A DNA stretch of 42,235 nucleotides from a virus, in UHGV virus genome UHGV-1993760, one strand, 5' to 3'. The position numbers and the translations under genes were made by a program. A model generated the notes under the pieces. The model had not been told where the DNA came from and searched no databases. It worked only from the letters and a program-made list of their open reading frames with translations. Positions 20,955-22,068 of the stretch are shown piece after piece (within the stretch, counting starts at the first letter, position 1; each line of letters starts with the position of its first letter).

Positions 20955-20998
20955 GACTTACCTCGCAAAAACTCTCACCTCACAATCAGAAAACCGCC

Positions 20999-21097
20999 CA
21001 TGTCCGGTTTGCATGTTCGTTTTTTGTACATGTCCGGTTCACAAAAAGCTTGTTTTTATATTTTTCATATAGTTAACCAGTAGGGAAACCGGACATG
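20999..21097. promoter_or_regulatory. candidate cosB-like terminase-binding repeats
   Basis: 11-bp motif CATGTCCGGTT at 20999-21009 and 21029-21039 (direct) and inverted at 21087-21097, located 45-145 bp upstream of the Nu1 start. Confidence 0.4.
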
Positions 21098-21227
21098 GTT
21101 CCCTGAAAATTTTCATAAATAGCGCGTTTTTGCGCGTGCTATGACCCCCGGTGTTTCAGGTTCTGGAAAGGACCCGTAAAAATGGGAATGATTCGCAGTT
21201 ACATACTCAGGAGGGCTGATGGTGTTA

Positions 21228-21270
21228 CTGGAAAGAACGACAAAGCGGCAACGATGATACGTTGCCGCTT
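21228..21270 (-). terminator. rho-independent terminator downstream of the fimbrial-like moron
   Basis: Perfect 10-bp inverted repeat aagcggcaac/gttgccgctt (21243-21270) followed on the minus strand by a T-rich tract. Confidence 0.55.
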
Positions 21271-21297
21271 GTTTAAGCAATTTAACCAGACATTAGA

Positions 21298-22068
21298 TTA
21301 CATGTAGGAAACAGTCACCGGCAGGGATGCATTCCACTGAATCTGGGAATCACCAGCCACAGCCGTGTCAAGAGTGATTTTGATGATTTTGCCCTGTTCG
21401 ATACCTGCTGCATAATAACCACTATAAGTAGCTCTAGTATTAGCAAAATTTGTGGTTACATCAACTTCAGAAGATCCAACACCCTGATAGGTATAATGAT
21501 CTGCTACCTCAGGCATTACATCAAAGGCAATGTTTTTATTCGGAACCCCTGCTTTATCTTTAGGTAAGCCGCCAAAGAATCCCTGCCCAGCTCTATTAGA
21601 ATAAGAATGGTTATATCCACTCCACGGGCCTTTAATAGAAACCAGTGCAGACGCTCCCAAAGACGTGGTCAGCGTGCCAATTTTAGCATTGGAATCATCC
21701 TTCACTTCCAGAGTGACTGGTGCACGACCATTTTTAAATGCATTAACGTCAACAGCAGTCCCATAGTCAATCTGCGGAGAAATTCCTACTTTTCCCTGGA
21801 ATGGCGTTGTGCTGGCAGTACGAATCCCCAGAACCGGAATTGCTTTGTTTACAACAACCTCAACAACCTTCTGCCCTTTCTGAACCTGCGCATCAAGGTT
21901 AATTACCGCATCACCCGTTTTTACTTCCCACGGAGTGTTTTTCTCAACCGGAGTCAGCGTACCGCCCAGCTCAATAGAACCACCCGTACCGTTTGCAGTC
22001 CATGCCATCGCAGAACCGGATACCACAGCAGAAGCTGCCACTGCCAGCGCAATCAGTGTTTTTTTCAT
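21298..22068 (-). CDS. secreted fimbrial-subunit-like protein (K88/F4 FaeG-like), prophage moron
   Basis: ATG at 22068 with GGGAA upstream; signal peptide MKKTLIALAVAASAVVSGSAMA; N-terminal ...IELGGTLT... and C-terminal ...QWNASLPVTVSYM resemble FaeG as I recall; AT-rich upstream region. Confidence 0.5.
   Translation of the reverse strand: MKKTLIALAVAASAVVSGSAMAWTANGTGGSIELGGTLTPVEKNTPWEVKTGDAVINLDAQVQKGQKVVEVVVNKAIPVLGIRTASTTPFQGKVGISPQIDYGTAVDVNAFKNGRAPVTLEVKDDSNAKIGTLTTSLGASALVSIKGPWSGYNHSYSNRAGQGFFGGLPKDKAGVPNKNIAFDVMPEVADHYTYQGVGSSEVDVTTNFANTRATYSGYYAAGIEQGKIIKITLDTAVAGDSQIQWNASLPVTVSYM

Follow-up and report, generated by a model that had tools for sequence, protein, structure and literature searches.

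A probable lambda-type cos region with a variant cosN and an uncharacterised class of small-terminase sites in an E. coli prophage

The window, by which we mean the whole 42,235-nucleotide stretch of the virus genome UHGV-1993760 that was analysed, very probably holds the lambda-type cos region of a lambda-like-headed E. coli prophage. Judged from their sequence, three copies of the 11-bp repeat CATGTCCGGTT lying upstream of the terminase genes are almost certainly docking sites for the small terminase (TerS) in a lambda-like cos. The element is of a textbook type. Its TerS/R-site class is uncharacterised but common, and its cosN belongs to a class that appears to be undescribed in the searchable literature.

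Anatomy of the cos region and its genomic context

The anatomy is based on alignment to the joined ends of lambda and phage 21 (cos subsites annotated, OL657228) and to PhiR12_1. On the minus strand, the order is cosQ, cosN, an I2-like block, R3, I1, R2, R1, Nu1, and A. The features are listed below.

21243..21270, minus strand: intrinsic terminator, an 11-bp stem followed by a T-rich tail
21169..21175, minus strand: cosQ heptamer GGGTCCT
About 21157..21125, minus strand: cosN-like nicking region
21147..21157, minus strand: conserved block GAAACACCGGG, immediately left of the predicted top-strand nick
21146..21135, minus strand: putative cohesive end 5'-GGTCATAGCACG-3'
21105..21134, minus strand: right flank of cosN, CGCAAAAACG and then CGCTATTTATGAAAATTTTC (the latter 21124..21105)
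21087..21097, minus strand: R3, CATGTCCGGTT, pointing towards Nu1; proposed primary binding site of TerS
21063..21075, plus strand: core TTTCATATAGTTA of an I1-type IHF site, with an A/T tract at 21045-21062
21029..21039, plus strand: R2, CATGTCCGGTT, inverted with respect to R3
20999..21009, plus strand: R1, CATGTCCGGTT, oriented as R2
20991..21002, minus strand: degenerate fourth copy CATGGGCGGTTT, in the orientation of R3 and overlapping R1
20445..20954, minus strand: small terminase, Nu1 homologue of 169 aa, with a GTG start at 20954
18557..20473, minus strand: large terminase, gpA homologue of 638 aa (ATPase domain, residues 48-293; nuclease domain, residues 323-602)

In lambda, cosQ is the packaging termination signal, and it is specific to cos packaging. 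The heptamer in the window is identical to cosQ of lambda and to the annotated cosQ of phage 21. When the left end is set by the favoured nick register (see below), the heptamer starts at bp -29, compared with -30 in lambda, phage 21, and PhiR12_1. After cosQ, the minus strand runs through the divergent segment GAAACACCGGGGGTCATAGCACGCGCAAAAACG. The 20-mer CGCTATTTATGAAAATTTTC is identical to lambda bp 23-42, which is the I2 region, and this block is the homology anchor common to all 128 lambda-like cos sites that we collected.

The minus-strand block GTTAACTATATGAAAAATATAAAAAC, which holds the I1 core, lies between R3 and R2. The core TTTCATATAGTTA has the same position and orientation as lambda I1 and agrees with the IHF consensus at seven of nine positions, as does lambda I1 (7/9; phage 21 I1, 8/9), but the consensus score is not significant by itself, such matches occurring 8.6 times per kb. 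The intrinsic terminator at 21270..21243 is the only terminator predicted in 20900-21400, and it is part of the upstream K88-like fimbrial gene rather than of cos.

The 421-bp cos region (20900-21320) is 100% identical to that of a prophage of E. coli CEA224S. In phage orientation, the CEA224S prophage carries, in order, lambdoid early genes, Q, holins, an M15 endolysin, small ORFs, and a gene for a 257-aa hypothetical protein. Next come the small and large terminases, W, the portal, an S49 protease, D, E, and FI, followed by a P2-like contractile tail module.

The TerS ORF is located directly downstream of cosB and overlaps the gpA ORF. Pfam Phage_Nu1 matches the 169-aa protein over residues 49-150 only; the N-terminal winged-HTH domain is divergent, and its recognition helix is predicted at residues 15-22 (DRQLRRLQ). 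The large subunit matches both gpA families of Pfam (GpA_ATPase PF05876, E 1.3e-53; GpA_nuclease PF20454, E 1.5e-67). It shares 65.5% identity with lambda gpA, 78.5% with phage 21 gp2, 81% with the Gifsy-1 protein, and 82% with the proteins of the PhiR12 phages, and none of 50,697 phage records contains a gpA more than 82% identical. At its N-terminus, over the first ~40 residues, gpA tracks the TerS type.

Conservation of the cosB repeats and their pairing with the TerS recognition helix

The preliminary description had claimed two direct copies and one inverted copy of an 11-bp motif, 45-145 bp upstream of the small terminase start. The claim is borne out: CATGTCCGGTT occurs exactly at 20999 (+), 21029 (+), and 21087 (-), with no further exact copy in the 42-kb window. 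All three copies are within 99 bp, at 45-55, 75-85, and 133-143 nt upstream of the GTG at 20954, so that they span 45-143 nt from the start. Over the whole window, four matches with at most one mismatch are present, against 0.8 expected, and a scan of the whole window for any 11-mer on either strand finds a triple 11-mer within 150 bp in the repeat region only.

When the region is aligned with related phage cos regions, as had been proposed as a check, the repeats occupy the R3, R2, and R1 positions of the lambda and phage 21 sites. The suggestion that they are cosB R sites is supported. However, the pattern of two direct repeats and one inverted repeat is not that of lambda and phage 21, in which R3 points rightwards, R2 leftwards, and R1 rightwards; in the window, R3 points rightwards and both R2 and R1 leftwards.

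R1 is partly palindromic because it shares CATG with the degenerate copy CATGGGCGGTTT. This fourth copy is kept in most but not all relatives, being degraded in loci L100 and L081, and PhiR12_1 has CATGACCGGTTT in its place. Another candidate R site, CATGTTCGTTTT (21012-21023, plus strand), was rejected; it is a degenerate copy and is not kept in relatives.

R3, in the form CCATGTCCGGTTT, is invariant in 19/19 distinct relatives and R2 in 18/19. Across the 19 distinct cos sequences with a window-type cosB, R1 is kept in the E. coli relatives, and the I1 block is nearly invariant while the spacers between subsites vary. For evolutionary depth, we collected the DNA upstream of TerS homologues 60-83% identical to that of the window, from E. 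coli, Klebsiella, Salmonella, Citrobacter, and Enterobacter. The start-to-start distance from R3 to R2 is 59 bp in every lineage of the five genera, with R3 always directed towards the gene and R2 inverted. An IHF-type core is found between R3 and R2 in all four relatives viewed in full; TAA-N4-TTGAT, the full IHF consensus, occurs there in Klebsiella, Salmonella, and Enterobacter, and TAA-N4-TTGAA in Citrobacter. As judged from these alignments, the conserved core is the inverted R3/R2 pair.

R1 is present in the Klebsiella relatives and absent from those of Salmonella, Citrobacter, and Enterobacter. This patchy distribution across lineages fits the accessory role of R1 in lambda, where the site is non-essential (PMC4669245), and R1 is probably accessory in the window as well.

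The repeat sequence varies together with the recognition helix of TerS. Proteins with the helix ...LRRLQ are paired with xATGTCCGGTT, and proteins with ...LR(D/N)LQ are paired with CA(T/C)TTCCGGTT, a rule that holds in all 13 distinct TerS/cosB combinations, which come from five genera. In particular, base 4 in the repeat and residue 20 in TerS covary, Arg going with G and Asp or Asn with T. Replacement of Arg by Asp or Asn in step with that of G by T is the pattern expected of a direct base contact, suggesting that residue 20 may read this base.

This type of cosB is widespread. Of 5,426 complete E. coli genomes, 1,230 give a match of 80-90% identity to a query that extends from the I2 block as far as the start of Nu1, and O157:H7 strains and the PhiR12 phages are among the carriers of the window-type cosB. 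Searches of the literature for the CATGTCCGGTT motif and for the predicted overhang returned only unrelated primer matches.

A variant cosN and its probable nick register

The preliminary description did not identify cosN by eye and expected it at around 21100-21250. The predicted site at 21135-21146 falls inside that interval; it was missed by eye because its sequence is not the GGGCGGCGACCT of lambda. Ungapped homology to lambda, phage 21, and PhiR12_1 places the putative end 5'-GGTCATAGCACG at 21146..21135, with predicted nicks at 21147/21146 (minus strand) and 21135/21134 (plus strand). We consider this register probable.

In this register, canonical sites align without gaps from bp 1 rightwards. 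R3 then lies at bp 50-60, a position that depends on the predicted bp 1, and is contained in the lambda R3 interval of bp 50-65 (PMC9026076). R3 is at bp 50 in five of six relatives that combine a canonical cosN with the TerS type of the window, including PhiR12_1, and at bp 51 in the sixth, from Klebsiella. The same register sets the 21-type R3 of STEC313, which has the variant cosN, at bp 53, as in phage 21. Furthermore, an Enterobacter relative, L265, carries GGGCGGACGACG↓CGCA (arrows denote nicks), which resembles the predicted end and bridges the two cosN classes.

In lambda-like phages, bp 1-6 (GGGCGG) and the CG flanking the nicks are conserved and bp 7-12 are free (Feiss et al., PMC4669245), and our canonical set agrees. 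The site predicted in the window, GGG↓GGTCATAGCACG↓CGC, shares bp 1, 2, 4, and 7 with lambda and keeps the right-flank CG. However, it lacks GGGCGG in its left half, and its left flank is GG instead of CG, so that it departs from published lambda-like ends. The cos could also be of lambda type but cut in another register, giving 5'-GGGGTCATAGCA (21148..21137), with CG dinucleotides kept at both nicks, or 5'-GGGGGTCATAGC (21149..21138), in which the variable hexamer is bp 7-12, as in canonical lambda-like phages. The resemblance of ACC↓GGGGGT to ACG↓GGGCGG also speaks for a shift. Against this, R3 would move to bp 52 or 53 in the shifted registers, away from the bp 50 of most canonical relatives, and in lambda the distance between cosN and R3 tolerates a change of only 1-2 bp, larger changes being deleterious (PMC4669245). 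Indels would also be needed to the right of cosN, where the alignment otherwise has no gaps, and L265 has TGCC↓GGGCGG, indicating that a left-flank CG is not universal. A shifted register is therefore possible but somewhat unlikely. Scoring of dyad symmetry was tried for the register and did not discriminate, the true centre not being ranked first even in lambda.

With the end at 5'-GGTCATAGCACG, a packaging scheme can be drawn from the literature on lambda and phage 21 (PMC4669245, PMC9026076). The two winged-HTH domains of a TerS dimer would dock on R3 and the inverted R2, which an IHF-induced bend at I1 would draw together, and R1 would contribute affinity. Docked TerS would anchor the large terminase, and the C-terminal nuclease of the latter would make staggered nicks ~49 bp upstream of R3 and so leave cohesive 5' overhangs of 12 nt, with 5'-GGTCATAGCACG as the most likely sequence. 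cosQ would act at the termination of packaging. All observations on the window agree with this scheme. The sequence comparisons establish the anatomy, homology, conservation, and covariation, and from these we infer protein binding, bending, nick positions, and prophage activity by analogy with lambda and phage 21.

The variant cosN was delineated by scanning IMG/VR with cosQ and the I2 block as the only anchors, which, together with other collected loci, yielded the 128 cos sites. Nearly all of these have the form ACG↓GGGCGG-N6↓CGC, with variation limited to bp 7-12. The window is a member of a minority class, AAACAC(C/G)GGGGGT-N6-ACGCGCAA, which can be condensed to G(G/A)G↓GGT-N6-ACG↓CGC and is distinct from GGGCGGCGACCT. 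This class is found in 29 IMG/VR contigs and, when at least 80% coverage of a cosQ-cosN-I2 query is asked for, in ~111 of 5,426 complete E. coli genomes.

Among 28 distinct sequences of the class, the central hexamer varies by 0.9-2.0 bits per position, while the 11 nt to its left and the 8 nt to its right are near-invariant, GGT and ACGCGC alone being fixed by the search pattern. The block GAAACACCGGG varies by only 0-0.2 bits in these sequences, compared with 1.0-1.6 bits in 60 canonical sequences, and it is also present in the distant L270 lineage. When the search is anchored on the left side only, N6-ACGCGCAA follows in every instance adjacent to cosQ. A scan with the left 14-mer GAAACACCGGGGGT alone is dominated by chance matches, with 136 occurrences of which only 35 are beside cosQ, and reveals no new variant. 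The variant pattern was not found in a scan of one genome per species, and the taxonomic breadth documented for the class is therefore that of E. coli-derived records.

One member of the class, CCGAG GGT CGGTAG ACG CGCAAAAAC, is present in a prophage of several hundred genomes, mostly of ST131. This prophage has a TerL nuclease domain only 54% identical to that of the window, a 101-aa TerS-like protein whose DNA-binding domain is of the window type, and only one R3, TATTTCCGGTT. For lambda-type overhangs, the literature search found only variants that keep GGGCGG.

Nuclease-domain coupling, alternative readings, and known systems

The variant cosN occurs with at least five types of cosB/TerS: those of the window, of phage 21, of the Gifsy-1/lambda-like AGATCCGTTCTTCTT, of CACTTCCGGTT, and of the N15/Monarch-like GGTTGTTGTT. 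Nevertheless, the nuclease domain of gpA (323-602) is 97.9-99.3% identical to that of the window in the 13 other intact IMG/VR members and STEC313, and in three further complete E. coli genomes with the variant cosN it is 97.5-100% identical. The nuclease domains of 55 distinct gpAs with a canonical cosN are at most 92.5% identical to it, and in most cases no more than 82%. For the ATPase domain, the identities of the two classes overlap (minimum of the variant class, 93.9%; maximum of the canonical class, 94.3%). Seven alignment columns separate the classes fully, 383, 391, 439, 556, 559, and 561, all in the nuclease domain, and 622.

In these phylogenetically non-independent samples, the pattern is what would be expected if nuclease domain and cosN must match, and matching could be its cause. 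The link could also stem from shared descent, with recombination replacing only the internal cosB-Nu1-gpA(N) module. The chances seem evenly balanced that the class marks a gpA clade with altered nicking specificity for G(G/A)G↓GGT-N6-ACG↓CGC. This cosN would then be no substitute for the GGGCGG type of lambda, phage 21, N15, and Gifsy-1, and the left block AAACACC would be required.

The cosN survey also bears on whether the region is functional at all. It could be an inactive relic, in which cosN has decayed in a defective prophage and the repeats persist through recent common ancestry. No induced phage with the terminase of the window has been deposited, and several related loci are rearranged remnants without gpA. 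However, this class of cosN is seen repeatedly beside intact Nu1 and gpA genes, in many independent contigs and genomes; it combines invariant flanks with a freely variable centre, which argues against decay, and it is retained in the lineage with the 54% identical nuclease domain. The head and tail genes of the window are all annotated as intact, as they are in the record of the CEA224S prophage, which has no pseudogene flags. We therefore regard a relic as improbable.

Far less plausible is the idea that the repeats are not terminase sites but transcription-factor operators for the late or terminase operon. Upstream inverted and direct repeats are typical of operators, and MerR-like winged-HTH proteins are usually regulators. 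But promoter prediction gave no sigma-70-type promoter in 20900-21400, the repeats are at the R-site positions of mapped cos sites, and their sequence covaries with the recognition helix of the next protein encoded downstream, which is otherwise a Nu1 subunit. Headful packaging with a pac-like region is hardly credible, given a large terminase of the gpA family that is 65-82% identical to cos-phage terminases and an exact copy of cosQ, the termination signal specific to cos packaging.

The lambda-type cos favoured here resembles that of lambda in the order and spacing of the subsites, the cosQ heptamer, the identity over bp 23-42, the inversion of R3 and R2 around an IHF site, the position of R3, and the Nu1 and gpA terminase genes. 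It differs in the R sequence (CGTTTCCGTTCTTCTT, or CGTTTCC(G/T)TTCT, in lambda versus CATGTCCGGTT in the window) and in cosN (GGGCGGCGACCT in lambda versus the predicted GGTCATAGCACG). Lambda Nu1 is 35% identical to the window TerS overall, but the DNA-binding domain of the latter is not detectably homologous by sequence.

Phage 21 has the same architecture, and its R core CATGTCGGNCC is similar to CATGTCCGGTT, differing at 4 of 11 positions; the centres of R3 and R2 are 57 bp apart in phage 21 and 58 bp apart in the window. However, R3 of the window is 3 bp closer to cosN (50 versus 53), and cosN of phage 21 is canonical, unlike that of the window. The TerS of phage 21 (gp1) is 36% identical, with an unrelated N-terminal sequence. 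The R sites of phage 21 are (C/T)(G/A)TGTCGG(N)(C/A)C, and the window repeats do not have its CATGTCGG(N)CC specificity.

PhiR12_1 to PhiR12_5 (PV340549-54) and related prophages have the same cosB repeats, I1, and spacing as the window, with a TerS 88% identical. They differ from it in a canonical cosN, ACG↓GGGCGGCGACCT↓CGC, and in a gpA nuclease domain only ~74.6% identical.

N15 and Monarch, with the R site GGTTGTTGTT, form a natural lambda-like class of TerS/R-site specificity (PMC4669245), and some variant-cosN relatives of the window have an N15/Monarch-like R3 GGTTGTTGTT. N15 has a simple cosB, with a single critical R3, no I1, and an rR2 inside gene 1, and its cohesive end differs from that of lambda only at bp 9 and 12 (PMC4669245). 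The window, with its conserved R2, I1, and R1, is not of this simple type. Nor does it resemble the PICIs of Gram-negative bacteria, whose Rpp proteins of 135-153 aa are proposed to be without the TerL-binding C-terminus and need a helper TerS, and whose cosB is without I1, R2, and R1 (PMC6739421, PMC9026076); the TerS of the window has the Nu1 body, its ORF overlaps gpA, and a full set of head genes follows. By sequence comparison, the R sites and the TerS DNA-binding domain of the window match none of the specificities of lambda, phage 21, and N15.

The window-type cosB is common in prophages of pathogenic E. coli and therefore bears on the co-packaging or hijacking of elements. In practical terms the implications are modest: tools that seek GGGCGGCGACCT would miss the prophage ends of the variant class.

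Lambda terminase is the reference cos system, and the reading of cosN by its large subunit is still poorly defined. Nature offers matched pairs, in which the same cosB/TerS accompanies either type of cosN (the window prophage versus PhiR12_1) or the same cosN and nuclease domain accompany at least five types of TerS/cosB. With pairs of this kind, the recognition of cosN by TerL could be dissected independently of that of the R sites by TerS. If the readings proposed here are true, Arg20/G4 versus Asp-or-Asn20/T4 would be a natural code for a fourth TerS/R-site specificity, and the packaging incompatibility group would be set by TerL and cosN, not by TerS and cosB, with the central six bases of the end free.

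Prophage make-up and the gene next to cos

The whole window, like nucleotides 1-40421 of L006 (the E. coli CEA224S locus, whose prophage is identical over the cos region), is a mosaic prophage. Its early region is lambdoid, its head module is lambda-type (Nu1, A, W, B, C, D, E, and FI), and its tail is P2-like and contractile, with baseplate V/W/J/I, sheath, and tube. Two further genes in the prophage are a KwaB-like (Kiwa) gene and a hok/gef gene.

A fimbrial gene separates the lysis genes from cosQ, and a second cosQ-like sequence is located nearby.

21298-22071 (-), gene for a K88/FaeG-like fimbrial subunit (Pfam Fimbrial_K88, E 2.7e-58)
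21228-21238, second cosQ-like copy, GTTCTTTCCAG, 10/11 identical to the cosQ block GTCCTTTCCAG

The fimbrial subunit has a signal peptide and its gene has its own terminator at 21243-21270 (-). Neither an usher nor a chaperone is present near the gene, leaving the subunit alone. The gene looks like a moron; in related prophages, the position that it holds here is occupied by LT-II or Stx2e toxin genes. The cosQ-like copy is positioned 65 bp upstream of cosQ, overlaps the tail of the terminator, and may be due to chance.

Paired and distant cos sites

Two convergent cos sites, separated from each other by 750-960 bp, are present in each of four loci.

L068 9319-10302, two convergent cos sites
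L090 983-1966, two convergent cos sites
L135 491-1259, two convergent cos sites
L087 9602-10624, two convergent cos sites

In L068, a single complete small-terminase gene is located between the two sites, and gpA is absent from the arrangement. Because the arrangement is found again in several independent IMG/VR contigs, it suggests a conserved rearranged prophage remnant.

A distant terminase system is encoded at 3290-3980 of L270 (E. coli AR_0086), a segment matched by several hundred mostly ST131 genomes. The nuclease domain of its TerL is 54% identical, and its TerS-like protein, 101 residues long and annotated as hypothetical, has an N-terminal DNA-binding domain of the same type as that of the window TerS. 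R3 is single (TATTTCCGGTT), and cosN, CCGAG|GGTCGGTAGACG|CGCAAAAAC, belongs to the same class as the variant cosN of the window.

The centre of the variant cosN and its carriers

21138-21143 (-), central hexamer of the variant cosN, CATAGC

Among closely related phages, the hexamer takes at least 10 different values, while its flanks are invariant. Its variability is 0.9-2.0 bits per position across the window hexamer and its equivalents in L004 (phage SerU-LTIIb), L005, and L131-L157. A variable hexamer within invariant flanks suggests that the middle of the cohesive end is either unconstrained or under diversifying pressure.

The variant class is also present in L272 (E. coli U90), an Stx2e-encoding prophage, and in L004, an LT-IIb-encoding prophage remnant. 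Therefore, the variant cosN is a packaging site class used by toxin-converting phages.
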